The notes under the pieces were generated by a model. That model did no database searches, was not told where the DNA came from, and saw nothing but the letters and a program-made list of their open reading frames with translations. This document shows, in pieces, positions 1 to 62,087 of a DNA stretch of 64,000 nucleotides. The stretch's first letter is position 1, and every line of letters starts with the position of its first letter. Source of the DNA: Eledone cirrhosa. Lineage: Eukaryota. Location of the stretch: assembly GCA_964016885.1 (NCBI GenBank), contig OZ024752.1:39246001-39310000 (forward strand). Reading direction: 5' to 3'. The position numbers and the translations under genes were made by a program.

Positions 1-575
1 ACTGAGCATAAGAGGAATCAAATGCTGTGTGCAGGAGAGGCGATTGCGTTGGTATGGATATGTGATGCGTATGAAGGATGACAGCTGCATAAAAAGGTGC
101 AGAGCACTAGAAGTCGATGGAAACCGCGGAGTAGGGAGACCCAAGATGACCTGCGATGAGGTGATAAAAGCCGACCTGACCCAATTACACCTCTCAAAGG
201 CGATGACACACGACCGTGACCTCTGGCGTCACGCAGTAATACAGAGTACCCGACCTCCCATGGGTACAAGCTGAAGCATCTAGACAATATGGCCCCACAC
301 CCTCCACTGCAAGGTGGTCGTGGAGGTGCCACGGCAAAAAAGCACGCAGCCCAAACTGTAAAGTCGACGTCTAGGCACCACGAAAAAGCACCCAGCACCC
401 CCTGTAAATGAGGTTGGTGTTAGGAAGGGAATCCAGCTGTAGAAATCAAGCCAAATCAGTTCCGGTATGAGCAAGGCATGGTCAGCCGACCAGACACTGC
501 CCACAACAGGACAACACTTCTAACCCATGCTAGCGTGGAAGAAAGGACGTAAAACGGTGATGATGATGATGATGA
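1..575 (+). mobile_element. RTE-clade LINE 3' end (ORF C-terminus, 3'UTR, (GAT)n tail)
   Basis: ORF 29-274 reads QERRLRWYGYVMRM...GRPKMT...DRDLWR, homologous to the C-terminus of the RTE ORF at 22398-25265; the 3'UTR contains ggttggtgttaggaaggg and ends in GAT repeats. Confidence 0.9.
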
Positions 576-2524
<1,949 letters not shown>

Positions 2525-2536
2525 GAGGAAAATAGA

Positions 2537-3205
2537 GGAGAATAGAGGAAAGGTGTTTCCTCAAAAACCAGTATGACTCTAAAAACCGGTTTGTCTGTGT
2601 GTTTACATACAGAATAGCTGGACACTTACAGTAAAGTAACCAGTGAAAGACTTGGTACATCTACATATGTATACGTGTGTGTATTCATATGCATACTAGT
2701 ATTTCAGTATACATATGTGGATGTACATTTTTAACTTAATGGTTTAAGCGTCAGTCATACAAAAGTGAGTTACAAACGAAACGAAATTTAATTTCGTTTC
2801 GTTATTTGTTTTTATCGTCTCCGTTGAACCGGTACGTACTCACGCTCTATGCAAATTAGTCTGCCCACTACTAATTTTCATAGAAAAAGCATATAACGAT
2901 ATGTGCTTTTACGATTCTCTAGAGAGGCCGGAAGATAGGTAAATATTGCTGATGAGATGTAACAACATCGAAACTAGTTCAATATTCCTTGTCTGGCTTT
3001 CTGGAGAATAGAGGAAAGGTGTTTCCTCAAAAACCAGTATGACTCTAAAAACCGGTTTGTCTGTGTGTTTACATACAGAATAGCTGGACACTCACACTAA
3101 AGTGACCAGTGAAAAACTCGGTACATCTACATATGTATACGTGTGTGTATTCATATGCATACTAGTATTTCAGTATACATATGTGGATGTACATTTTTAA
3201 CTTAA
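2537..3205 (+). mobile_element. Non-coding partial tandem unit (~466 bp) carrying a hammerhead ribozyme; Penelope-like pseudo-LTR or retrozyme-like element
   Basis: 2537-2739 is repeated directly at 3003-3205; the intervening segment carries a hammerhead motif; flanked by TA arrays. Confidence 0.7.
2942..2986 (+). ncRNA. Minimal type-I hammerhead ribozyme
   Basis: aatattg-CTGATGA-gatgt(aaca)acatc-GAAA-c(ta)g-TT-caatatt: 7-bp stem I, 5-bp stem II with a G-C base pair at its foot, palindromic helix III (actagt), GUU cleavage triplet after 2979. Confidence 0.88.
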
Positions 3206-3207
3206 TC

Positions 3208-3271
<64 letters not shown>

Positions 3272-3627
3272 ACATATATATATATATATATACATATATA
3301 TACATATATATATATACATATATATACATATATATACATATATATATATACATATATATATAGATACATATATATATAGATACATATATATATATAGATA
3401 CAGTAATTCTCTTCTCGAATGGGCCATGGTGCCCAAATCCTGAATTGAAAGACTTCGCCAGGTGGTGCTATTAAGTTAGACATGGCCTGGGCCAATACTG
3501 GCCAAAACATTTCAAAGTTATTCAAAGTTATATATATACATATATATATATACATATATATATATACATATATATATATACATATATATATATATACATA
3601 TATATATATACACATATATATATATAC

Positions 3628-4617: not shown

Positions 4618-4955
4618 CATCATCATTTCATTTTATTTTATGTCCGCTTTTTCCCTGCTTGCAAGGGTGGGACGGGAACTGATTCTAGCTTGATTTCTAC
4701 AGCTGGATGCCCTTCCTAACACCAACCTCATTTACAGTGAGTGCTGGGTGCTCTTTTGCCGTGGCACCTACACGTCGACTTTGCAGTGGAATGATAGGGA
4801 CCCCAGTCCCTATCATCTCATTTCTACAGCTGAGTAAACTGGAGCAATGTGAAATAAAGTGTCTTGCTCAAGGAAACAACACATCACCCGGTCTGAGAAT
4901 TGAACTCACAACCTTTCGATTACAAGTCCAATGCTCTAACCAGTAAGCCATGTGC

Positions 4956-14912: not shown

Positions 14913-15783
14913 CTGAAGCTATTCAATAATAAAGACAAGTCTTAAATATTTCACAACTGTTAAATAAAACAAGAACTAACACAAACCGATGTCTTAAAAA
15001 GGGAAGTACACATTAAATAATACAGTACTAAATACTATGAAAAAAGATGGGATGGTCATGGCTGGAACTCTTGATCATAAGCCTGCTTGCTCAGGGCTGA
15101 TATAAGAGATAAACAACTATAAACAGCTAATACAAATGAGAAACATTGTAAATAAAATTCCATGATTAAAATTGAATGAAGAATGAAAAAATTATATAAG
15201 GATTAAACTTGCAGATACATATAATAGATGTGTGTTTTGGTGCAGTTATAAGTGCATGTTACCACTCATTAATTATCATCATTACTATTTTCTTCATTAC
15301 TATTTTCTTCATTGTTAAATCATGAGTTCAAGAAAAGGGACAAAATATAACCTAATACAAATATAATCCACAATGTATAAGCTCTCTTTACCCACCTTCT
15401 TTGGAACATCCTATGTATTCTGATTGTACTAAATAATGTATAGATATATCATCATCATCATCATTTTAAGTCCGCTTTTCCCTGCTTGCAAGGGTGGGAC
15501 GGGAACTGATTCTGGCTTGATTTCTACAGCTGGATGCCATTCCTAACACCAACCTCATTTACAGTGAGTGCTGGGTGCTTTTTTGCCATGGCACCTCCAC
15601 AACCACTTTGCAGTGGAATGATAGGGACTGGGGTCCCTATCATCTCATTTCTACAGCTGAGTAATCTGGAGCAATGTGAAATAAAGTGTCTTGCTCAAGG
15701 AAACAATACATCACCCGGTCTGAGAATTGAACTCACAACCTTTCGATTGCAAGCCCAATGCTCTAACCAGTAAGCCATGCACC

Positions 15784-19190
<3,407 letters not shown>

Positions 19191-21575
19191 TGTAGGCACC
19201 TTAAAGGGTCGCTCTAACGAGGTTGTAGAAATGCTTGAACGTAAGGAGGTCGATGTTTGTTGTATTCAAGAGACCGGGTGGAGGGGTGGATCTGCTAGAT
19301 ACATTGTGGGTAGAAAACGATGCTATAAGCTTTTCTGGGTGGGAAACGACAATGGGATGGGTGGAGTAGGAATCATGGTAGCAGAAAAGTGGGCAGATAA
19401 GATAATAGACGTAAATAGAGTGAACGACAGAATAATTAAAATAAGACTTGTCCTCAATAGAACTACGGTGACAGTAATATCCGCGTACGCACCCCAATCC
19501 GGACTGCTCAGCACTATAAAAGACAGATTCTATGAGACACTGATGCTCACTACCTCCCAAATAACCGACAGTGACTATATAATTATTGCAGGCGACCTAA
19601 ACGGTCACGTTGGACAACATTGTGATGGCTACGACGAAATCCATGGAGGCTATGGGTTTGGTACTAGAAATGAGGAAGGCTCCAGAATCCTGGAATTCTG
19701 CGATGCAAATAACCTAACTATCTGCAACACTAACTTCAAAAAACGAGACACTCACTTGATCACCTACAGATCAGGGGAACATACTAGCCAGGTAGATTAT
19801 ATCCTTACCAGAAGACGTGAAAAAGTGACTGTCGTAAACACTAAATCCCTCCCCCATGAAGAATGCACTTCCCAACATAGACTGATAATTAGCGACCTAA
19901 TAGTCAGGACGAGACGTACTAGACAACAGAAGAGGACTATCCTCAGGAGAAAAATATGGAAGCTAATGGACCCCACAGCCAAAAATAAATTCCAAAGCAT
20001 ATTACTTGATGCTTTCGACAGTGAGGAAGAGCAACTAGAGACGTACAAGGTAGAGGAACAGTGGGAATTCCTGAAAGCAAACCTGCTGACGGCGGCAGAC
20101 GAAGTCTGTGGCTGGAGCAGGCCTGTAGGTAGGAGGAGAGTAACATGGTGGTGGAACAGTAAGGTGGAGGGGTCAATTAAGGCCAAAAAGCAGGCTTGGA
20201 AAGTATGGCGGGATGGGGGAAGCAGAGAAGACTATCAAGTGGCCAGGAGGGAAGCTAGGAGACAAGTGTACTTCGCAAGAAGGGAAGCAGAGGAAAGAAA
20301 GTTCAAGCATGTTCTACAACGTGAGGACCAAAAACGTGAGGTGCTCAGGATTGCTAGGCAATGTGTCAAGGAAAACAGTGATATTGTCGGGGAGAAGTGT
20401 GTACTTAACGATGACGGCATACTTGCCATCACCGATGCCGATAAGAAGGTAGCTTGGAAGTGTCACTATGAAAGGCTACTAAATGAGGAGAATAAATGGG
20501 AGAAAGACAGTCTCCCCCACATCGACCCAATAGAGGGACCAGCAGTGTTAGTCGAGGGTAGTATAATAAGTAAGGCAATCAAAGATATGAAGACAGGCAA
20601 GGCGGCTGGGCCTTCGGAAATAGTTGCCGAGATGCTGAAGGCATCTGGTACGGTGGGACACACCATGGTCACCCGGATAGTCAACCAAGTCATACAGAAT
20701 GGGGTTGTTCCGAAGGACTGGCGTAGCAGCATTATCGTTAACTGTTATAAGGGTAAAGGAGATGCCCTAGATAGGAGTAACTATAGAGGCATTAAATTAA
20801 TCGACCAGGTCATGAAGGTCACGGAAAAAGTAATAGCGCAACTAATCAGAGAGCGAATTGATCTAGATGAAATGCAGTTCGGGTTTGTGTCAGGAAAAAG
20901 TACCACAGACGCTCTTTTCATTGTACGACAACTACAGGAGAAGTACCTAGCTAAAAGTAAACCCCTATACTTAGCTTTCGTCGACTTGGAGAAGGCCTTC
21001 GACAGAGTCCCCCGTTCCATTATCTGGTGGGCTCTTAGAAAACTAGGTGTTGATGAATGGCTTGTGAGAGCTATACAAGCCATGTATAAAGAAACAGTCA
21101 GCAAGGTTAGAATTAACAACGAATATAGTGAAGAGTTTAGTGTAAAAGTTGGTGTTCATCAGGGCTTTGATCTTAGCCCCCTACTATTTATTATTGCCCT
21201 CCAGGCTATAACAGTGGAGTTCAAGACCGGCTGCCCATGGGAACTCCTATACGCAGATGATCTAACGCTCATAGCCGAATCAATGGCCGAGCTAGAGAAG
21301 AAATTTCAAACATGGAAGCACGGCCTAGAATCAAAAGGCCTTAAAATTAACCTGGCTAAGACTAAAGTTCTAGTTTGTAAGAAAGAAAATAAGGCGGCGG
21401 TCCCCTCCGGGAAGTGGCCATGTGCAGAGTGTAGGAAAGGCGTAGGTAGAAATTCCATTTTGTGTCCCAAATGCAAAGTTTGGGTGCATAAAAGATGTAG
21501 TGGGATCACAGGTAAGCTAACTAAGAACATAGATTTTACATGTGGCCGGTGTTCTGGGGCAATAAGTAGCAGCAA

Positions 21576-21579
<4 letters not shown>
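19191..21579 (+). mobile_element. RTE-clade LINE copy 1 (AP endonuclease, RT, PHD finger), truncated at both ends
   Basis: Open frame of over 780 aa: VGTLKGR...CIQET, SAYAPQ, GDLNGH, VDYIL, SQHRL (endonuclease); NYRGIKL, FVDLEKAFDRV, GVHQG, YADD (RT). Ends at AISSSK in a TA array. Confidence 0.96.
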
Positions 21580-22198: not shown

Positions 22199-22292
<94 letters not shown>

Positions 22293-22302
22293 ATATGTAT
22301 AT

Positions 22303-22334
<32 letters not shown>

Positions 22335-22348
22335 ATATATATATATAT

Positions 22349-25300
22349 ATCTGCTAGGTTCATTGAGGGTAAAAAACGTTGTTATAAGCTTTTCTGGGTG
22401 GGAAACGACGATGGGCTGGGTGGAGTAGGAATCATGGTAGCAGAAAAGTGGGCAGATAAGATAATAGACGTAAATAGAGTGAACGACAGAATAATTAAAA
22501 TACGACTTGTCCTCAATAGAACTACGGTGACAGTAATATCTGCGTACGCACCCCAATCCGGACTGCCCGGCACTATAAAAGACAGATTCTATGAGACACT
22601 GATGCTAACTACCTCCCAAATATCCGACAGTGACTATATAATTATCGCAGGCGACCTAAATGGTCACGTTGGACAACATTGTGACGGCTACGACGAAATC
22701 CATGGAGGCTATGGGTTTGGTACTAGAAATGAGGAAGGCTCCAGAATCCTGGAATTCTGTGATGCAAATAACCTAACTATCTGTAACACTAACTTCAAAA
22801 AACGTGACAATCACCTGATCACCTATAGATCCGGGGAACACACAAGCCAGGTAGATTATATCCTTACCAGAAGACGTGACAGAGTGTCTGTTGTTAACAC
22901 TAAATCCCTCCCCCATGAAGAATGCACCTCCCAACATAGACTGATAATTAGCGACCTCATAGTCAGGACGAGACGTACTCGACAACAGAAGAGGACTATC
23001 CTCAGGAGGAAAATATGGAAGCTAAAGGACCCCACAGCCAGGAATAAATTTCAAAGCATATTACTTGATGCTTTCGACAGTAAGGAAGAACATTTAGAGT
23101 CGGACAATATAGAGGGAGAGTGGGAATTTCTGAAAGCAAACCTGCTGTTGGCGACAGACGAGGTCTGTGGCTGGAGCAGGCCTGTAGGCAGGAGGAGAGT
23201 AACATGGTGGTGGAACAGTAAGGTGGAGGGGTCAATTAAGGCCAAAAAGCAGGCTTGGAAAGTATGGCGGGATGGGGGAAGTAGAGAGGACTATCAAGTG
23301 GCCAGGAGGGAAGCTAGGAGACAAGTGTACTTAGCAAGAAGGGAAGCTGAGGAAAGAAAGTTCAAGCATGTTCTACAACGCGATGACCAAAAACGTGAGG
23401 TGTTCAGGATTGCTAGGCAATGCGTCAAGGAAAACCGTGATATTGTCGGGGAGAAGTGTGTACTAAACGACGATGGCACACTTGCCATCACCGACGCTGA
23501 TAAGAAGGTAGCTTGGAAGTGTCACTATGAAAGGCTTCTAAATGAGGAGAATAATTGGGAGAAAGGCAGTCTCCCCCATATCGACCCAATAGAGGGACCA
23601 GCAGTGTTAGTCGAGGGGAGTATAATAAGTAAGGCAATCAAGGATATGAAGACTGGTAAGGCGGCTGGGCCTTCGGAAATAGTTGCTGAGATGCTGAAGG
23701 CATCTGGCACGGTGGGACACACCATGGTCACCCGCATAGTTAACCAAGTCGTACAAAACGGGGTTGTTCCGAAGGACTGGCATAGCAGCATCATCGTTAA
23801 CTGTTATAAGGGTAAAGGAGACGCCCTAGATAGGAGTAACTATAGAGGCATTAAATTAATCGACCAGGTCATGAAGGTCACGGAAAGAGTAATAGCGCAA
23901 CTAATCAGAGAGAGAATTGACCTAGATGAAATGCAGTTCGGGTTTGTGTCAGGCAAAAGTACCACAGACGCTCTTTTCATAGTACGACAACTACAAGAGA
24001 AGTACCTAGCTAAAGGTAAACCCCTCTACTTAGCTTTTGTCGACTTGGAGAAAGCCTTCGACAGAGTCCCCCGCTCCATTATCTGGTGGGCTCTTAGAAA
24101 ACTAGGCGTTGACGAATGGCTTGTGAGGGCTATACAAGCCATGTATAAAGAAACAGTCAGCAAGGTTAGAATTAACAACGAATATAGTGAAGAGTTTAGC
24201 GTAAAAGTCGGCGTCCATCAGGGCTCTGTTCTCAGTCCACTACTATTTATTATTGCCCTTCAGGCCATAACAGAGGAGTTCAAGACAGGCTGCCCATGGG
24301 AACTCCTATACGCAGACGACCTGACACTCATAGCGGAATCAATGGCCGAGCTAGAGAAGAAATTCCAAACATGGAAGCACGGCCTAGAGTCAAAAGGACT
24401 TAAAATTAACCTGGCTAAGACCAAAGTACTAGTTTGTAGGAAAGAAAACAAGGCGGCGGTCCCTTCTGGGAAATGGTCGTGCTCGGTGTGTAGGAAAGGC
24501 GTAGGTAGAAACTCCATTTTATGTCCTAAATGCAAAGTATGGGTGCATAAAAGATGTAGTGGGATCACAGGTAGGCTAACTAAGAACATAGATTTTACAT
24601 GTGGCCGGTGCTCTGGTGCAATAAGTAGCAGCAAGTGCCCACAAACTACTAGCTCTTTCAATTGCGCAGAGGGTTCTATAGAAATAGTGGACAGCTTCCG
24701 TTACCTGGGCGATAAAATCAGCAGTGGGGGAGGGTGCTCTGAAAGTACTGTAGCTAGAGTCAGAACTGGTTGGAAAAAGTTCAGAGAGCTTATACCACTA
24801 TTAGCTGCTAAAGGGTTCTCACTAAAAATGAAAGGCAGGTTGTACGATGCCTGCATACGAACAGCAATGCTGCATGGCAGTGAGACCTGGGCATTGTGTG
24901 CAGAGGATATACGCAGACTAGAGAGGAACGAAGCTTGCATGCTCCGCTGGATGTGTAACAGTAATATACGTGAACGGCAAAGCATAAACGAACTAAGGAA
25001 TAAATTAGAGATAAGAGGGATCAGATGTTGTTTACTCGAGAGAAGGCTACGTTGGTATGGACACGTGATGCGCATGAAAGTCGATAGCTGTATAACAAAG
25101 TGCAGGGCAATAAAGATAGACGGTAGTCACGGAATAGGCAGACCTAGAAAAACCTGGGACGAGCTGATAAACTCCGACATCACACACTTACACCTCTCCA
25201 AGACAATGTCACTGGACCGAGACCTTTGGCGGTACTCAGTAACAGAGAAGACTCGCCTTACCTAAATATATAGTAAAACCTACTCCAGCCAGTAGGCATC

Positions 25301-32210: not shown

Positions 32211-32634
32211 ACTCGGAGACTTCTGGCTCTTCCCCAATCTAAAAACTATGTTTTTCTGTGTTCAATCAACATATTAGCCGTCCTCTCCTCTATTGGCAAC
32301 AGCATGTGTGGTCATACATTCTTTATATCTCTTCTATGTGGTTATATCTACTTCATGTTTAGCCCGTGTATATATATATATCTTCATCATATATTTCCCA
32401 TGTGTGTATGTATGCCACATTTTCATATATAGTTCCAAAAGCAAAAAATGGAATTAAGCAAGTAAGTTAACATTGAATGAATGAGGAAAGAAAGAAACAG
32501 ATAAAGAAAGCGAAGAAAGTGAGTGACATGCATTTTGATTTATGGAAACACTACTCAAAATAGCATTTGTGAAACTTGTAATATTTTTTTGCATATTCAT
32601 TTCTGTTATTATTTTGTTGTTGTTTCTGAAAGAT

Positions 32635-32937
32635 AACTGAAAGTTAATGCAGTGAGTCCTCATTTAATGAAAAATTGACTCAAACCTTATCTTTTAGAAA
32701 CAACAACCAATAGCTAACTGAAAGTTAATGCAGTGAGTCCTCATTTAACGAAAAATTGACTCAAACCTTATCTTTTAGAAACAACAACCAATAGCTAACT
32801 GAAAGTTAATGCAGTGAGTCCTCATTTAACGAAAAATTGACTCAAACCTTATCTTTTAGAAACAATAACCAATAACTAACTGAAACTTAATGCAGTGTGT
32901 CCTCATTCAACGAAAATTTGACTCAAACCTTAGCTTT
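32635..32937. repeat. 81-bp minisatellite, ~3.7 copies
   Basis: Unit starts (aactgaaa.ttaatgcagtg) at 32635, 32716, 32797 and 32878. Confidence 0.92.
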
Positions 32938-33299
32938 TGTTCATTGTTTCTAAAAAAAAAACTGAAATGTGATGCAGTAAGTCTTTATTCAACAAAATTT
33001 GACTTGACTTACATCCAACATTAATACAATTTAAAAGAGTACAGATCCCAATTAGACTAAGTTTTGCAATGTTCATCAACAAATCTTAGAGACAGACATT
33101 ATCAGTAACTAGTTTGCAATTAGAGGAGCTTTGCTTCTCTCATGAACAATTGTATGTTGGATGCTCATGTATTAGTAGTTCAAAAAATCTTTTAATTTAT
33201 ACTCCATTGGGAAAAACTCAATGTATATAAAGAAATTTGGTCATAATTTTCTTTTGTACGTTTTCTATTTCAAGTTTATTATTATTGTTAATCTGCTAT

Positions 33300-34964: not shown

Positions 34965-35943
34965 AAAATATATTTCATTATTAGCCACAAGGGCGCACAA
35001 GAAAAGGGGACAATACAAAGACATGACAGGGATTTTACATACAGTCGTATAAAAAATATAAAAAAAACAATTACAACAATCGAAATCCCCAATAGGGGGG
35101 AGGCGCCACAAATGGGTTGTTTAATACCCTGTCGATAGAACAACCCTCAACTCCAGGAGCGTGTTGTGCAAGCACTCCTTTCTTCCTTTTGCTCTCTTCC
35201 TCAACCTCCAGGCTTATAAACAGAGAAGGCCCAATCACTCGGGCCATTTTCGCTTCATTCACCCACCTTTCAGTAAATTTACTGGGGTGCAGTGCCTCTC
35301 TCTCCACCCTGATTCTCCTTCTAAAGTGATACTTAAAGAAGGGAATCAATTGTTGTCCGGAGAGAAAGGCATCTGTTCTCAGTCCTCTCAATCTCGTCCA
35401 CCATATAACTTCTTTCACCATATAGCCACCGTACAGAGGAAAACCGCCTCTCTTTCGTTTTTGAAAGAGGCTGGCGGTTTGATCCTTACTATGGACTCGG
35501 CAGTCAACAGCAGTTGTTCTGCATAGTTCCACAGGTTGGTTATGCCCGGGCAATGTACACTTGCATGCAGGACTGTTTCAATGTCCTGCGCGCATCTTGG
35601 ACACGTCCTCTTGGAAGGATCTTTGCTGGGGCGTCCGTGCCTGTAGATCTTGTCACGAACCGGTAGAGCTCCTTGGTAGCACTGCCAGGCCAGGGACCTC
35701 TGGAAGTTGTCCATAGGTCCCGGGCGAAAAGTCCTACCAAACAGACTGGTGAGCTCATCGTCTTCGATACCCAGAGTCTCTCCAAGCACGTCGTCGCCCT
35801 TGTAACGTACAATCCCTCTATAGAACGTCGAAGTGGAGTCTCCATTGATTGCTGCGCCTGCTTGCCAGAGGACTGTGAGCGCCTGAGCGCATTCAATGTG
35901 CCAGGCGCCCATCGTTTTCGGTCTTTTCTTGACCCAGGACTGC
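34965..35943 (-). mobile_element. 5'-truncated Tx1/L1-like LINE (C-terminal CCHC zinc-knuckle region plus 3'UTR)
   Basis: AWQCYQGALPVRDKIYRHG...CPRCAQDIETVLHASVHCP...W, with a frameshift; flanked by duplicated gtaggagtgtagg. A related relic lies at about 57900-58130(+). Confidence 0.82.
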
Positions 35944-36883
35944 AGGTAGGTAGGTAGGAGTGTAGGTAGGTAGGTAGGTAGGTAGGTAGGTAGGTAGGTA
36001 TGTATGTATGTATGTAGAAAATGTACACATGCACAAACATACGCACATATGCACATACACACAAACACACACACACATACACACGCATAAACATACATAC
36101 ACACACATGCACAAACACACATAAACACTCAAGCACATACACACATACACACATGTGTGTGTACAGATGTAATCAAAATGATATCCATATAGGTAGGTAG
36201 AACAGTATGTATGTACATACCTAATCAAATACAATCAAAATTATATCCATATAGGTAGATAGGTAGGTCGTTAGGTATGTAGGTGGGTATGTAGATGGTA
36301 GTTAGGTAGGTAGGTAGGTATGTCTGTCAGGTTGCTCTTGAGTGTGACTGGTAACATGTAACCCAGTACAATCTGTCTCATGGTTGGGTTGTCGGCAACG
36401 AAACTGGCAACCCCATCAATCTTGGTAAGGAGGGTGATATTTGGACACCCTGCGGGATGAAATGCAAGACCTGGCAAAGGGCGGAGGGACCTCAGCAGAG
36501 TCAATAGCCATCCAAATAGTACTTTTTTTTTTATCACCTGGGAGTGAAAGGCCCCCAGGTGTTGTCACAACACCTTTCTAGGAGAGGGAAACTCTGGAAA
36601 AAAAAACCTGCGGCTTTAGAAGCATCTGATGATGTTGACCAGTTCTCCTTTTCGGGTAGTGTTTTCGATGCTCAGAGAGTGGGATTGGTCGAGTGCAAGG
36701 CCTTTCCCCACTTAAAAAACCTTCAAAGCTCAGGTATTGCTTGTTCAGGATATGTTCCAGGTTCGTGTGGCTGGCCGTTGCCTAAAAGTGCACCAAACAC
36801 CAAACTGACATACGATTGCAATACTCTTAGCAGAGTTTGCAGCCATCATGTATGTATGTAGAAATATACACACACACACATAT

Positions 36884-37765: not shown

Positions 37766-38060
37766 AACAAAAGATGGTTAAAAGAGTTCCATGTATTTTA
37801 TTATGCGCATTTCAAAAACAAATATCATCATGCAATAATATTTGTGTTTTCATCAGATAAAACAGGAGGACATGATATGAAGGTTAAAAAACACTTGTGG
37901 ATAGTTCAGTTTTAAATCAACATAAGTGTTTTTTAACCTTCATATCATGTCCTACTGTTTTATCTGATGAAAACACAAATATTATTGCATGATGATATTT
38001 GTTTTTGAAATGCGCATAATAAAATACATGGAACTCTTTTAACCATCTTTTGTTCTTATA
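37760..38060. repeat. ~300-bp foldback element (135-bp arms), TA-flanked, MITE-like
   Basis: taagaacaaaagatggttaaaagagttcc... and ...ggaactcttttaaccatcttttgttctta are near-perfect reverse complements. Confidence 0.9.
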
Positions 38061-45130: not shown

Positions 45131-45828
45131 CTGAAAAAAAAAAAAATGTATATATATATTCAATTGTTTATGTTCTTTAATTTTTCTAATTGAAGAGGAA
45201 CAATTTGAAATAAATTAAAATATTATGGATAACACAGAATTGATTGAAAAATAAATGTTTTATGTATATTTTAAAGCTAAATACAGATATAGTTATTGAG
45301 GACTAATGGAATGGAATAAAGTATGAATGTCAGGTTGAAGTCCTGCCAATATTTCACAATGGATGTCAAAAATATCACCTTGGTGTGAAAGACTAAAAAA
45401 CAATAATGACATCTACTGATAATAGGGAACAATGTTTGCAAAATAAATGGAAACATCAGCCCGAAAGCAGACATTCGAATATTAAAGGACATACGACTGC
45501 TGAACTGGGCATACCATAAGATGATCATCCTGGTGACATAAGAAAAAAGCACCCAGTCCAACCTGTAACATGGATGTGCTGGTGACACCAAAAAAGTATC
45601 CAGTCTGCCCTGTAAGATGGTTGTGCTGGTGACACCAAAAAGGTATCCAGTCTGCCCTGTAAGATGGTTGTGCTGGTGACATGACGAAAAGGCACCAAGT
45701 CCACCCTGTTAGATGACCTTTCCGGTGCCTCATTAAAAGCACCCAGTCCACACTGTAATGGGTTTGGCATTAGAAAGATCATCCAGATGAAGAAACCAAA
45801 CCAAAATACAAATACAAGACATGGTCAC

Positions 45829-46498
45829 TTTATACAATAAACTACAGGATGTTGGAGGAAGCAGTGTGATGTTTCACACATTCCATCTTATACAATAAAC
45901 TATTGGATGTTGGAGGAAACAGTGTGATATTTCATACACTCCACCTTATACAATAAACTACTGGATGCTGGGGGAAACAGTGTGATATTTCACACATTCC
46001 ACCTTATACAATAAACTACTGGATGCTGGGGGAAACAGTGTGATATTTCACATATGCCACCTTATACAATAAACTACTGGATGTTGGAGGAAAAAGTGTG
46101 ATATTTCACACATTCCACCTTATACAATAAACTACTGGATGCTGGGGGAAACAGTGTGATATTTCACATATGCCACCTTATACAATAAACTACTGGATGT
46201 TGGAGGAAACAGTGTGATATTTCACACATTCCACCTTATACAATAAACTACTGGATGTTGGAGGAAGCAGTGTGATATTTCACACATTCCACCTTATACA
46301 ATAAACTATTGGATGTTGGAGGAAAAAGTGTGATATTTCACACATTCCACCTTATACAATAAACTACTGGATGTTGGAGGAAACAGTGTGATATTTCACA
46401 CATTCCACCTTATACAATAAACTACTGGATGTTGGAGGAAGCAGTGTGATATTTCACACATTCCACCTTATACAATAAACTACTGGATGTTGGAGGAC
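45829..46498. repeat. 58-bp minisatellite, ~11.5 copies
   Basis: Unit ttatacaataaactactggatgttggaggaaacagtgtgatatttcacacattccacc; tatacaataa recurs at 45831, 45889, 45947 ... 46469. Confidence 0.95.
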
Positions 46499-46696
46499 AA
46501 AGTGAAAGCAGAGTATATTTGGAACAACATATCTGTTAATTAATAATCCTAGATCTGTTTGATCAGTGTTAACTTTAGGATCAAATAACAGAATCACTGA
46601 TGAGGTTCTTAATTCTATCAACAAATGAGACTTTCTCATAAGTAATTGTTTTGAAAATAAAATCAATCTTTATATTAGAAACATAATATTACTTAC

Positions 46697-49125: not shown

Positions 49126-51651
49126 ACGTGAAACTTGTTTTATTCCATTTGAATTCCCATTTCAAGGGCAACTTCCTCTCAAAGTATTTGCGCCAATTTT
49201 GGATATATTAAATTACAGACAAGACACAACCACAGAGTTTTAGTAGTATACTAGATCACTCGTGACTCGTTGAGTCACGTTCACTTCAAAGTATTTTTTT
49301 TAAAATCATGTTCACTTAAAAATAAATTTTAAATAATTAAAATATACACAGACGTGTATATAATGTGAAATGAAACTGGAAGGCCCATATATATATACAT
49401 GTGTGTATGTATATGTGTGTGTGTATATACATATATATATGTGTGTGTGTATACATAAATATATATATGTGTGTGTGTATATATATATATGTGGGTGTCT
49501 GATCTATATACACTGGTCATAGACACACACACATATATATATAGACACACACACTCACACATATATATATATATATATATACACACCACCACCAGCTCTC
49601 TTCCATTCTCCTTCTCTGTCTCCTCTCCCTCTCTCTATGTCTCTCTTTCAATCTACTCTCTCACAACCACTATCTCTTCCTCTCTCTTTGTTTATGAAGG
49701 TACTTGGAAAAAAACCCATATCTCGGGAACCCGTGGCCCGATTTACGCAAAACTTGTTTCATTCCATCTGTATTCCCATTTCAGGGTCAACTTCCTTTCA
49801 AAGTATTTTCCCATTATGCACCGTTTTGGATGTATTAAATTACAGACAAACCACAATCATGGAGTTTTAATAGTAAATAGACAAGAAAAGGAATAAAAAC
49901 AGAAGGTAACAAATAATGAGAGAGTAAAAATGAATTCAGAAGTAAAAACAAAGTGAGAAAAATAACCAACAACATACAAAACAACTATCACTTGCCCCTC
50001 TGTCTCAAATACACAACAACATACTCTGTTACTTTCTCTTTCTTTAAACTACGCACTAGATCAAAAAGGGCAAACTGTTAAAGTATCGTCCACTCTCTAA
50101 TAGGATAGGTTTGTGGTAGTGTTTGTAGCAGTGGAGACTTCCGGCTTTGTTGACCCCTAGAACAGATCCCTACTCACTGCTAACAAAGTGGAGTTGGTTA
50201 CCTGCAAGCGCTAGCCCCACCATGTGGAATAGCTGTTCCAGTGTGTCTCCCTCATCATACTGTAGGGCAATGTCTCCTCCACTCTCTCCACCACTACCAC
50301 AAGATGGACTGACCTTTGAACAATAAGTGGTAAACAGTGGTGGACTGGGTCTAAAAATATTGTTTGCCAGGAGATAAAGGGGGCCCACCCATATATAGAA
50401 TGGTATCATTTGATTTTTATAATGAATAAATAACATTTTCAAAAAAATACATAAGTGAAAACAAAACAGTGCAATCAAAACTTTGCGGAAAAAATGTGTA
50501 TTTTTTTACTAATTACAGTGTATATATATGGTACATATTACTGGCAGTATACAGTAATACTAAATGTTAATACAAAATATTATAATTGAATTTTTAAATA
50601 ATTGTGAATGTATAGTATACTGTTATTTAGAGTAGAGTATGAAAGTGATCATTCCTACCTCGTCCAATAAAAAGTATAAAGTGAAATATACAACTCCAGA
50701 GACTTTCAATAATGACCTTGGTCTTTCACAATCACTCAATATATAGTGAAAGAAATGTTCCTACTGTTTCTCTATTTGACTTGGCCAATAAAAACCGACT
50801 TTTGACAACACTTAGAGAAAAACACTTGAAGAATACGGATGCTAGATTTAACGACACTAAGAATGGAGAAGATAGCGGGAGGTCATATAAATAGGCTGTC
50901 CTGAAATCAGTGGACAGAGAGAATTTTCTATCACCAAAAGAAAACGTCACCTACTCTTGTCACTGACCTTTGATTGCTACAATATCTTGTGATTCTCTAT
51001 TTCAACATAACGGAATAACAGCAAAAAACATTGTCAACCTTTATTCTTTGTTCCTTTATTCGCTGAACTGAAGTAAATTTTATATTTAAATGAAACTATT
51101 TATTTTGTCATGTTATTTCATTTCTAACAACACTTACTAACTTCACTTCACATATAAGTATATACAGCTGCGAGGGAGACGAAGATACTAAATCAGAAAC
51201 TAAAGTTCTCTTTTTAGCATATAGATTTACAATATTTTTCACTATCTGTAGTAAAACACATGCTAAGTGTACGTTTCCCAATAGTATGTTCATAGTTTAA
51301 TATAGAATTGTTTGATTGACAGCAAGTCGCAACATACATAGATTAGTATAGGGCTTCTATGTTTGTGGGATCATAGAGCAACTATTCAGCATGCTCAGAT
51401 TAAAAAATGTTCATAGATTTGTTTTTAGGGATAAAATGCCAATTAATCTACTTAAGTCAAAGTATGTGGAAATACAACAAAACACAATGCCCTACTAAAG
51501 ATCCTGTTAATACAGGGTGGGGCATAATTCCTGTTTTAAATCAATTTAAAAATACATTATGTTGCTAATATAACTAATATATTTGTATCAAATCCATGCA
51601 CTATAACCATATTAACTATTTTTCAGAAAATTACTCCATTAACTATTTGCA

Positions 51652-52731
51652 ATGTCCATAGAATTGAAAAGAAAGTTCATTATAGAGAAGCATGAAAAAG
51701 GCCTGACTCCACCCAAGATATTTAAACTGGGGAAAATTCTTAAGATCAATAGAATGTTGATCAAAACAACAATTAATCGATTTAAGGACACTTCCTCACC
51801 CAAAGACAGACCTCAATCCGGACACCCTCGCACCTCAAGAACACCAAAACTTGTTAAAAGTGTGAGGGAAAAAATAAGGCGTAATCCAAGAAGGTCCATG
51901 AGAAAAATGGCAGAAGAAGCAGAAACATCGCCGAGAACTATACGGAGGATATGTCGAGATGATCTGGGGATGTCACCCTATAAGTTCCAAAAGAGGCAGC
52001 TTCTTTCTGCAGCCACAATTGAAAATAGGCTCTCGAGAAGTAAACTGTTATTGGACCGTATCAAGGATGGCACGCTGCAAAACATGACCTTTACAGATGA
52101 GAAGTTATTCACTGTGCAGCAGTCTCACAATCATCAAAATGATCGAGTACTTGCAAAAAGTCCCAAATCAATTCCTTCAAGTGTAGGAAAAGTGTTCAGA
52201 ACAGGGAAACCAGCATCAGTGATGGATTGGGCAGCCATTTCTGAAAGAGGGAAGTCTCCTCTGATTTTTGTGCCTCAAGGAGTTAAAATTAACAAAGAAC
52301 TTTGCATAAAGGATATTTTGGAAGGAGCACTGATGCCATGGTGCATATCTGTTTATGGCGATGACATTTGGACTCTCCAACAAGATGGAGCGATGAGCCA
52401 CACTGCTTGCGTAACACAACAGTGGTGTAGAGACCATTGTCCTGCATGGATCAGTAAGGAAGAGTGGCCTCCGACATCACCAGATCTCAACCCTCTCGAT
52501 TTTTCCTTATGGTCAATTCTTGAGAGTGAAGCCTGCTCTACTCCTAGCCAAAATATTGAAACTCTAAAATCAAAACTGAATAAAGTATGGGAGAAAATAC
52601 CCATGGAAACTGTTCGTGCAGCCATCGAAGACTTTCCTACAAGTCTTCGAGCAGTAGTGAGAGCTAGAGGAAAGCATTTCGAATACATTTTTGGGCAGTT
52701 GTTTAATAGTATATTACTTACTATTTGTTGA
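51652..52731 (+). CDS. DD37D transposase, uninterrupted 359-aa ORF
   Basis: HTH region; FTDEK, QQDGA and WPPTSPDLNPLD motifs, with exactly 37 residues between the second and third Asp. Confidence 0.92.
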   Translation: MSIELKRKFIIEKHEKGLTPPKIFKLGKILKINRMLIKTTINRFKDTSSPKDRPQSGHPRTSRTPKLVKSVREKIRRNPRRSMRKMAEEAETSPRTIRRICRDDLGMSPYKFQKRQLLSAATIENRLSRSKLLLDRIKDGTLQNMTFTDEKLFTVQQSHNHQNDRVLAKSPKSIPSSVGKVFRTGKPASVMDWAAISERGKSPLIFVPQGVKINKELCIKDILEGALMPWCISVYGDDIWTLQQDGAMSHTACVTQQWCRDHCPAWISKEEWPPTSPDLNPLDFSLWSILESEACSTPSQNIETLKSKLNKVWEKIPMETVRAAIEDFPTSLRAVVRARGKHFEYIFGQLFNSILLTIC

Positions 52732-55121: not shown

Positions 55122-55372
55122 AAATTAACTGTTTCCCTAACCATATTACTAATAGAATACACTGTCAATATGTTTAAATTAACTGTTTTCTAATCATATT
55201 ACTAATAGAATACACTGCCAATATGTTTAAATTAACTGTTTTCTAATCATATTACTAATAGAATACACTGCCAATATGTTTAAATTAACTGTTTTCTAAT
55301 CATATTACTAATAGAATACACAGCCAATATGTTTAAATGTTTAAATTAACTGTTTTCTAACCATATTACTAC
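55122..55372. repeat. 53-bp minisatellite, ~4.5 copies, preceded by a degenerate ~39-bp repeat at 54830-55120
   Basis: aaattaactgttttctaatcatattactaatagaatacactgccaatatgttt is repeated. Confidence 0.9.
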
Positions 55373-57661: not shown

Positions 57662-58304
57662 CATAGATTTCTCCGCTAACTGGGGCAGTTGTGCCAACCC
57701 ATTGTTGAATTAACAAACAATCATCTGCTAAGGTCATCTAATTAAACTGATGATCATCGTACGAGCTACTGCTTACTGTGAGAAAAGCAGGATTTTTTTT
57801 TTTATTGAGGCTTACTCCTCTAGATCTGTTCTGTTGGACTCTGCTATGATAGCCAAATGAGGCACCTTGGGAAGGAGGAAACTGTTCTCCACATCGCTCA
57901 GTATTCAAACTTAGAGAGGCTAGGTGCTTCCAGAAATCCCTGGCCTGGCAGTGCTACTGGAGAGCATTGCCGGTTCGAGATAAGCTCTACAGGCACGGAA
58001 GTGTCATCAGCCAAGCCTGTCCGAGATGCGCGCAGAGCGACGAGACCGTCGTGCACGCACTCATTCAGTGCCCGAGCATTGCTGTCGTGTGTAGGACCGA
58101 TCCAATTATCGACTGAGTTCATTGTGCAGATGGTCTTAATGAGCATATATTGTACATCATTAGTTAACTGAGTGGCATATTGAACAGACACTGGGACACA
58201 CGGGGGACACCACAAAAGACCATCCAGTGCCAACCAGTGAAATCTGTTACAGATCTGCACACACTTAAATTAACATATACATATTTACACATCCACATGA
58301 TATA

Positions 58305-61116: not shown

Positions 61117-61290
61117 ATACAAGAGTCGGCTGAAAAGTTCATAGGCTGACCAAGATACTCTCATGGAATGACCAAATGAGGTTTATTTTTCAACATAGTC
61201 CCTGGAAAGCAACAATGCAGTTATATGAGTTTCGGCTGAAAAGTTCATAGACTGACTAAGATATTCTCATGGAATGACCAAATGAGGTTT
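61117..61290 (+). mobile_element. Mariner-type TIR fragments (two tandem)
   Basis: ggctgaaaagttcataggctgaccaagatactctcatggaatgaccaaatgaggtttatt; same family as 63371-63716. Confidence 0.6.
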
Positions 61291-61527
61291 ATTATTTTAA
61301 GCAATCTCTCACCATCATTCCAGTCCATTTATTATTTTAAGCAATCTCTCACCATCATTCCAGTCCATTTATTATTTTAAGCAATCTCTCACCATCATTC
61401 CAGTCCATTTATTATTTTAAGCAATCTCTCACCATCATTCCAGTCCATTTATTATTTTAAGCAATCTCTCACCATCATTCCAGTCCATTTATTATTTTAA
61501 GCAATCTCTCATCATTCTAGTCCATTT
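61288..61527. repeat. 40-bp minisatellite, ~6 copies
   Basis: tttattattttaagcaatctctcaccatcattccagtcca is repeated. Confidence 0.93.
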
Positions 61528-61768
61528 CTTGTTTCAATCAGTTATTTGCTGTCATTCTAGCTCATTTCTTGATCATATTTTCCTATTACTCTTTTATTCT
61601 TAGCTTCTGTTAAATGTGAAAATTAATAAATTACTATTTTCTATTCCGCTCACACAGAGAAACTTTCAATGTTACATTGTCTTTATATTCAATACATGGG
61701 TGAGATAGATTTGCAAATGTTTGTTTCTAAAAATAAAAAAATTGGAAACATTTTTTTCTTTAACTTAC

Positions 61769-61970
61769 TTGTGTTGCTGAACCAAAAGCATGACCGAAAT
61801 CAATTCCTATCATTTGTCCTGTACCTTGATGTATCATCAGGTTACTTAAATGCCGATCACCAACACCAAGTATGTAGTGACAGATGCATAAAACTGCATG
61901 AGAAATCGTAAAGCCAGAGCGTAGAACATGAAAAGCCTCAGGTGATGTACTCATTTTCTTAAATGATTGT
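61769..61970 (-). CDS. PRKDC: DNA-PKcs catalytic-loop exon
   Basis: [40 protein letters not shown]...[14 protein letters not shown], a PIKK DRH/DFG region with PRKDC-type STSPEAF and GHAFGSATQ. The rest of the gene lies beyond the window. Confidence 0.96.
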
Positions 61971-62087
61971 CTGTTTGAAACAAGAGAATTATACATTTGT
62001 TTGGAGATTATACTCAAGAATACAATTGCAATATTCAAATCATTGTATCATAATTCAACTTTATTCAACAATATAACACGGAAAGCA

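Follow-up and report, generated by a model that had tools for sequence, protein, structure and literature searches.

A 1.44-unit insertion of an abundant 466-nt hammerhead ribozyme family, probably a non-LTR retrozyme, in the genome of Eledone cirrhosa

Introduction

What kind of element is the hammerhead-bearing partial tandem repeat found between two TA microsatellites in the genome of the cephalopod Eledone cirrhosa, and from which RNA was it copied? The original prediction, made from the letters alone, saw in it a reverse-transcribed copy of a self-cleaved or circular RNA of about 466 nt that was mobilised in trans by a Penelope-like reverse transcriptase (RT). For animal retrozymes in general both the enzyme that moves them and the template it uses are at the stage of proposals (PMC7229834; Li, Clavereau and Pollet 2026, 10.64898/2026.07.22.740005). 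Cephalopods are unmentioned in the main text of PMC7229834, and in the giant squid genome 235 Rfam Hammerhead_1 hits have been reported, which are not linked to repeats in the text of that report (PMC6962438). Our own literature search returned no cephalopod retrozyme, with most subscription papers lying outside its reach and the supplement of PMC7229834 possibly listing more invertebrates.

Here we analyse the locus within a window of 64,000 nt (the whole stretch of contig OZ024752.1 under study) and compare it with related sequences in public sequencing runs. The reading that we consider probable is that of a 5'-truncated copy of 1.44 units, belonging to an abundant 466-nt hammerhead family that is likely a non-LTR retrozyme, written by a borrowed Penelope-type RT-endonuclease into a TA microsatellite from a template in which two different units were likely joined.

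Results and Discussion

The insertion consists of 1.44 units of 466 nt, and both of its flanks are TA-type microsatellite (Table 1). Its ends form the direct repeat that had been predicted, 2537–2740 and 3003–3206, with a period of 466 and five differences in 204 nt (199 of 204 positions identical). The expected lack of a meaningful ORF was likewise borne out, as the longest ATG frames of the unit read round are 19 aa on the plus and 22 aa on the minus strand, and both extra hairpins named at the outset (2775–2803 and 2885–2910) are present. The upstream copy does start just past the position equivalent to the cleavage site, with an offset of 23 nt. The unit is strongly self-paired: its predicted fold reaches -156.2 compared with -100.4 ± 5.9 for shuffled sequences (z -9.5; none of 100 shuffles as low), and folded as a circle it reaches -158.9 compared with -94.8 ± 6.4 (40 shuffles). 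At the 5' junction a 10-nt period is present in three copies at 2522–2551, and a purine-rich run (2525–2553) marks the start of the unit. The extra letters at this junction likely arose by slippage as cDNA synthesis ended, and the microsatellite to the left is the likely insertion target, in which no target-site duplication is readable at 575–2524.

Table 1: Features of the insertion and of its neighbourhood in the window (positions are those of the window; a dot marks features without strand).
Feature	Position	Strand	Remarks
Left-hand flank, microsatellite of the (TA)n/(TATAC) type	575–2524	.	
5' junction	2525–2536	+	about 12 extra letters, imperfect repeat of the unit's first letters
Repeat copy 1	2537–2740	+	204 nt
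One complete 466-nt unit	2537–3002	+	36% GC, 67% paired in predicted fold, no ORF
Variable patch	2627–2653	+	holds all 5 differences between the repeats; 3 are alleles common to the family
Long predicted hairpin	2655–2726	+	second time at 3121–3192
Small predicted hairpin	2735–2748	+	holds two family 3' end points: 2740 (equivalent of the locus's own end, 3206) and 2746
Perfect 13-bp hairpin	2775–2803	+	AC-rich 5' strand
Predicted 11-bp hairpin	2885–2910	+	
Type-I hammerhead	2942–2986	+	predicted cut after U2979 (GUU)
Repeat copy 2	3003–3206	+	204 nt; closes the insertion on the 3' side
Right-hand flank, microsatellite of the (TA)n type	3208–3400	.	
Likely tRNA-derived SINE, two copies	4689–4950, 15510–15770		Rfam tRNA match 4893–4950 (-)
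Multi-Ig-domain gene, exons	8958–42903	-	likely transmembrane exon near 9.0–9.1 kb
APE-RT LINE copies, two, 5'-truncated	19177–21579, 22269–25265	+	frames of 800 and 998 aa, PHD finger, in TA microsatellites
Young minisatellites	32634–32938, 45826–46504, 55122–55338, 61288–61534		periods of 81, 58, 53 and 40 bp, respectively
zf-RVT fragments of another LINE family	35418–36128 (-), 57853–58113 (+)		
MITE-like inverted repeat, about 150 bp	37840–37990		CTGATGA in each arm; hammerhead-pattern match loose only
Tc1/mariner-type transposase	51643–52731	+	open 362-aa frame; HTH and DDE matches under curated cut-offs
DNA-PKcs (PRKDC) exon	61763–61981	-	best three named matches are molluscs (Tegillarca, Mya, Bulinus; 68–76% identity)

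As for the wider neighbourhood, the likely transmembrane exon of the multi-Ig gene is some 6 kb away from the hammerhead element, which lies past it on the opposite strand. The PRKDC exon supports a host that resembles molluscs, and no cephalopod is named among its 59 matches.

The full type-I hammerhead that had been proposed at 2942–2986, with a 7-bp stem I and the palindrome ACUAGU in helix III, was recovered by a descriptor scan of both strands of the window as the single match of this quality. Helix I pairs 2942–2948 with 2980–2986 (AAUAUUG/CAAUAUU) and extends past a UA bulge to about 2924/3000. The core segment CUGAUGA occupies 2949–2955 with G10.1 directly after it, helix II is formed by 2956–2960 and 2965–2969 (4 bp and a closing U-A), and GAAA (2970–2973) is followed by the palindrome (2973–2978) and by U17 at 2979, so that helix III is palindromic and only 1–2 bp long. 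The unit holds a single CUGANGA core, and the locus therefore one ribozyme. No match with a helix II of at least 5 and a helix I of at least 7 bp occurred on either strand of 60 window copies drawn from an order-2 Markov model. Loose matches numbered 0.03 per Markov copy compared with three others in the real window, so that the control is a lenient one. These three are poor: those at 37856 and 37964 are the two arms of the MITE-like inverted repeat, and the third lies at 57747. The covariance-model check agreed in part, since Hammerhead_HH9 was the best Rfam match (36.5 bits, E 1.6e-7 on 701 nt), but this is less than the gathering score of 52, and a scan at gathering level gave no hammerhead match. 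Matches to microRNA and sRNA families of Rfam are plain hairpins, all far under their gathering scores, and were rejected.

In PMC4209133 two forms are told apart: the canonical metazoan hammerhead, in which helix I has 6 bp, helix II has 4 bp and helix III is short and palindromic, and the minimal hammerhead of Penelope-like elements (PLEs), in which one nucleotide is added at 9/10.1, helix I is short and helix II is long. Because the ribozyme described here has no extra nucleotide between 9 and 10.1 and a long helix I, it is by its sequence a canonical hammerhead and not of the minimal PLE type, and its helix III is of the newt type; the earlier label "minimal" was thus wrong by the definition given in PMC4209133.

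Folding calculations suggest how such a ribozyme might behave. In the fold of the whole unit C3-U4-G5 is paired with the helix III palindrome (P 0.73–0.93) and helix III itself has P 0, so that a lone ribozyme is predicted to be locked off; within 2921–3002 the active monomer costs 7.6 kcal/mol. A double hammerhead (-48.4) and two resting monomers (-46.8) are about level, in energies that ignore tertiary contacts and concentration. In a multimeric RNA two copies could pair their palindromes and then cut after GUU, and cutting is predicted for the dimer only. A hammerhead with U17 cleaves more slowly than one with C17, and a search of the literature for cleavage rates of natural hammerheads with GUU was negative.

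Parts of the stretch were found in 20 of the 24 sequencing runs listed (16 studies, 17 organism labels), with no RNA run recorded among them; four runs were aligned in detail, and the remaining runs were not used as evidence for host range. In run X1 alone, possibly the source of the window itself, 1138 contigs could be aligned, falling into four identity bands of 532, 441, 136 and 29 contigs, and the summed depth is 230,000–640,000 around the whole unit, a figure that without a single-copy baseline is not a copy number. The homologous copies keep both the core and the stem pairing, as the retrozyme prediction implied: none of the 32 variant rows falls into the catalytic core, and A2957U together with U2968A makes a compensatory swap of a helix II pair. 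The two changes account for 46% and 68% of the X1 depth, respectively (unphased), and occur together on a single contig in each of X4 and X12. At position 17 U makes up about 89% and C 11% of the X1 depth. Predicted pairs are broken by six of 25 variants compared with 12.5 expected (P 0.003) and, with four repeat differences added, by seven of 29 compared with 13.2 (P 0.006), values to be read with the caveat that the fold was derived from this copy and that linked variants are not independent. The compensating pair, the four repeat-difference rows and row 2623, which would keep its pair, had been left out of the 25. Taken together the unvaried core, the compensation in helix II and the pair-sparing variants point to selection on the RNA structure.

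A head-to-tail joining of the units is indicated in run X4, in which contigs 18 and 20, of 183 nt and 343 nt, share sequence at either end and so form a closed loop of 183 + 343 - 60 = 466 nt, which would mean a tandem array or a circle. The loop was used for the structure of the unit and not for host range, as the source of the signal is uncertain. Its depth is about 188, and the raw Hi-C run with the same organism label (X22) contains no read of the unit in 1938 million letters, where 1.4–3.4 reads per genomic copy would be expected at an assumed genome size of 2–5 Gb; therefore X4 is not claimed as a genomic occurrence in a second species. In the small run X12, within the window positions 2786–3020, the dominant variant carries changes at 2824, 2834, 2844, 2858, 2913, 2920, 2924 and 2932, which are a 4–45% minority in X1; if X12 is RNA, this would fit the expression of a subfamily. 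Pattern scans gave no match among metagenome contigs and none among viral contigs. The family is thus large, its core is unvaried in the aligned contigs, and in one run its units appear to join head to tail. At the level of sequence, features of a metazoan non-LTR retrozyme are present, namely the core, the low-GC non-coding unit, the predicted self-pairing and the many copies.

Which RNA served as template for this copy? In the cDNA the cut site is intact and the 3' end lies 227 nt beyond it, and a cleaved linear monomer is therefore excluded. With one ribozyme at the locus no unit can be released from it by two cuts. All five differences between the repeats lie within 27 nt (P about 0.001 if they were spread uniformly), and three of them are alleles of the family: in the other X1 contigs A2638 is carried by 22,751 of 22,751 of the depth, G2649 by about 17,800 of 62,351 and T2653 by 98,889 of 98,889, while T2627 and C3097 occur in none of the X1 contigs aligned. 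The C-G to U-A swap between the repeats at 2627/2638 keeps its predicted pair (P 0.73 and 0.49); it was not counted as covariation, being a single case with a possible alternative register and with T2627 absent from the aligned contigs. Repeats that carry different family alleles suggest descent from different family variants, by way of a multimer of mixed units, of an RT that switched templates or of gene conversion at a later time.

It is against this background that we hold it to be unlikely that the copy represents 1.44 laps round a single circular RNA of the same family, with later conversion or mutation having made the differences. Such a circle would explain a cDNA that spans the cut site and is longer than one unit, the near identity of the repeats with their confined differences resembles a short conversion tract, and a circle model has been proposed in PMC4209133 and PMC7229834. 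But three of the five differences are carried by many other X1 contigs, so that fresh mutation alone is insufficient, and the patch coincides with the variability peak of the family (13 of the 32 variant rows at 2622–2660), so that the clustering needs no conversion. The allele argument comes from one locus and from contigs that are short and unphased, and a gene conversion that followed the insertion would leave the same picture; on this one locus we favour the mixed multimer and the template switch, taken together, over one circle with conversion. As template we regard as probable a multimer that came from a mixed array and was left uncut, or else two circles between which the RT switched. 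Of the original prediction of a copy made from one self-cleaved or circular RNA, the multi-copy structured hammerhead unit is supported, with its head-to-tail loop and with ends that fit Penelope-type priming, whereas a single RNA of this kind as the template of this locus is not supported, given the 227 nt past the cut and the shared alleles.

The ends of the copies bear on the enzyme. The 3' end of this copy at 3206 corresponds to 2740, and among the 12 of 51 rows listed for X1, loose ends running into TA repeats were seen after 2740 (one contig), 2746 (four) and 2815 (12), with the X1 depth dropping from 674,000 to 264,000 across 2815. The first two end points lie within the small hairpin, and 2815, the best supported, follows just past the perfect AC-rich hairpin, 12 nt downstream of it; none is the ribozyme cut. 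It has been described that the purified PLE protein of Anolis nicks AT-rich DNA, has two internal start sites for reverse transcription, which lie in an AC-rich stem-loop, and copies mainly uncut RNA (PMC11167929), and that PLEs favour microsatellites and partial tandems (PMC8557442). Recurring ends that lie away from the cut site and enter TA repeats are as would be expected from Penelope-type internal priming. An inverted 5'-truncated partner arm is an optional trait of PLE insertions (PMC8557442), and no inverted copy of the unit was found in the window. Among the 103 window ORFs scanned, which had been chosen mainly by length from 222 non-repetitive frames, there was no Penelope RT and no GIY-YIG domain. 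TA flanks are not specific for Penelope, as both APE-RT LINE copies of the window, which we take to be RTE-like, also lie within TA runs. At the other end, repeat copy 1 begins 23 nt downstream of the cut-equivalent site, and what it lacks corresponds precisely to the 3' strand of extended helix I, a pattern in keeping with a stalling of the RT there; this is one case, with a chance of about 5%, and no family loose end was seen at that place among the 12 of 51 rows listed.

We thus propose that elsewhere in the genome arrays of the unit would yield multimers, monomers and ligated circles, by analogy to the mussel and axolotl retrozymes, and that a helper enzyme would nick (TA)n and start reverse transcription inside the RNA at the fixed points 2740/2746 and 2815 rather than at the ribozyme cut. 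At the present locus the cDNA would have begun at the equivalent of 2740, passed through a cut site that was still intact and ended 23 nt before reaching the next. The locus itself is a truncated and non-productive copy, a dead end, and its element belongs to a kind already known.

Three further explanations differ in what the unit is or in what moved it. It seems quite improbable that an autonomous Penelope-like element is the origin of the unit, which would then be its pseudo-LTR, remaining as a partial tandem and making no independent RNA of unit length. It is true that PLEs show partial tandems, TA targets and a pair of end points, that U17 is present in three of three mollusc rows of the PLE-type hammerhead alignment (in the PDF text of PMC4209133, Fig. 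S3), and that in Xenopus 24 of 57 retrozyme families have matches to known elements, almost all of these being PLE termini (Li et al. 2026). However, the unit forms a closed loop of 466 nt in X4, its X1 depth is of the same order all around, it has no ORF, its ribozyme differs from the minimal PLE hammerheads in position 9/10.1 and in helix I, and no PLE ORF was among those scanned. Mobilisation of the retrozyme by an ordinary LINE (APE-RT) instead of a Penelope element, a possibility left open in PMC7229834, we regard as very improbable: even though the long APE-RT frames of both LINE copies (800 and 998 aa) sit in TA runs of the same window, the element has no poly-A or simple-repeat tail of its own, the unit does not match the LINE ends in the window, and its end points are internal.

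Hardly credible, finally, is a satellite-like DNA that was spread at the DNA level and in which the hammerhead is a relic without cutting. The unvaried core, the compensatory change in helix II and the pair-sparing variants all speak against it, and ends that repeatedly run into TA repeats are in line with new insertions, although the majority of U17 and the self-locked monomer fold would suit a relic and expansion by unequal crossover is discussed by Li et al. (2026). The retrozyme copied by a Penelope-type enzyme thus remains the reading that we prefer. A further idea within it, tempting although doubtful, is that the ribozyme is tuned down by design through the majority GUU site and the locked monomer, so that uncut multimers or several circles would remain as templates of an RT of the Penelope type, which would prime at two fixed internal sites and could join different units in one insertion. 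If this were true, the helper enzyme of animal retrozymes would be identified and with it a route of recombination at the RNA stage. In any case the recurring internal end points of an abundant family provide exact priming sites to test, and the differences between adjacent units make a genome-wide count of one-circle and mixed-multimer templates possible.

Comparison with known systems

The element resembles the non-LTR retrozymes of coral, mussel and axolotl (PMC7229834) in its type-I hammerhead, its low-GC, non-coding and self-paired tandem unit and its high copy number. Its helix III is built like those of axolotl HHR_Amex1 and newt satellite 2, with one pair and a palindromic tetraloop cap, a form that works as a dimer in these animals; for HHR_Amex1 efficient cutting only as a dimer has been reported (PMC7229834). 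With 466 nt the unit is longer than the 350–390 nt of mussel and the range of 150–450 nt stated in PMC7229834, and unlike the retrozymes described there it has a majority GUU site, a predicted self-locked monomer core and one ribozyme at the locus.

The unit length does lie inside the 51–972 bp of the vertebrate retrozymes of Li et al. (2026), whose 35 genomes include no mollusc according to the text of that study. Among the vertebrate elements monomers and partial copies are common, and a PLE helper has been proposed; there the link to PLEs comes from co-occurrence and pLTR homology, whereas here it comes from the geometry of the insertion ends. The same study defines an "active" locus by two consecutive units, each with a ribozyme, a definition under which the present locus falls out, and found one of nine predicted Xenopus retrozyme dimers to be cleaved in vitro.

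With the pLTR hammerheads of PLEs (PMC4209133) the element shares the palindromic helix III, the frequent U17 and the partial tandem layout, but it differs from them in that nothing is added at 9/10.1, helix I has 7 bp and an extension, helix II has 4–5 bp and there is no ORF. Its AT-rich targets and more than one internal end near an AC-rich stem-loop are like those of the Anolis Poseidon element PAc (Frangieh 2024, PMC11167929), although the end points are 69–75 nt apart here compared with 30–40 bp in the PLE tail.
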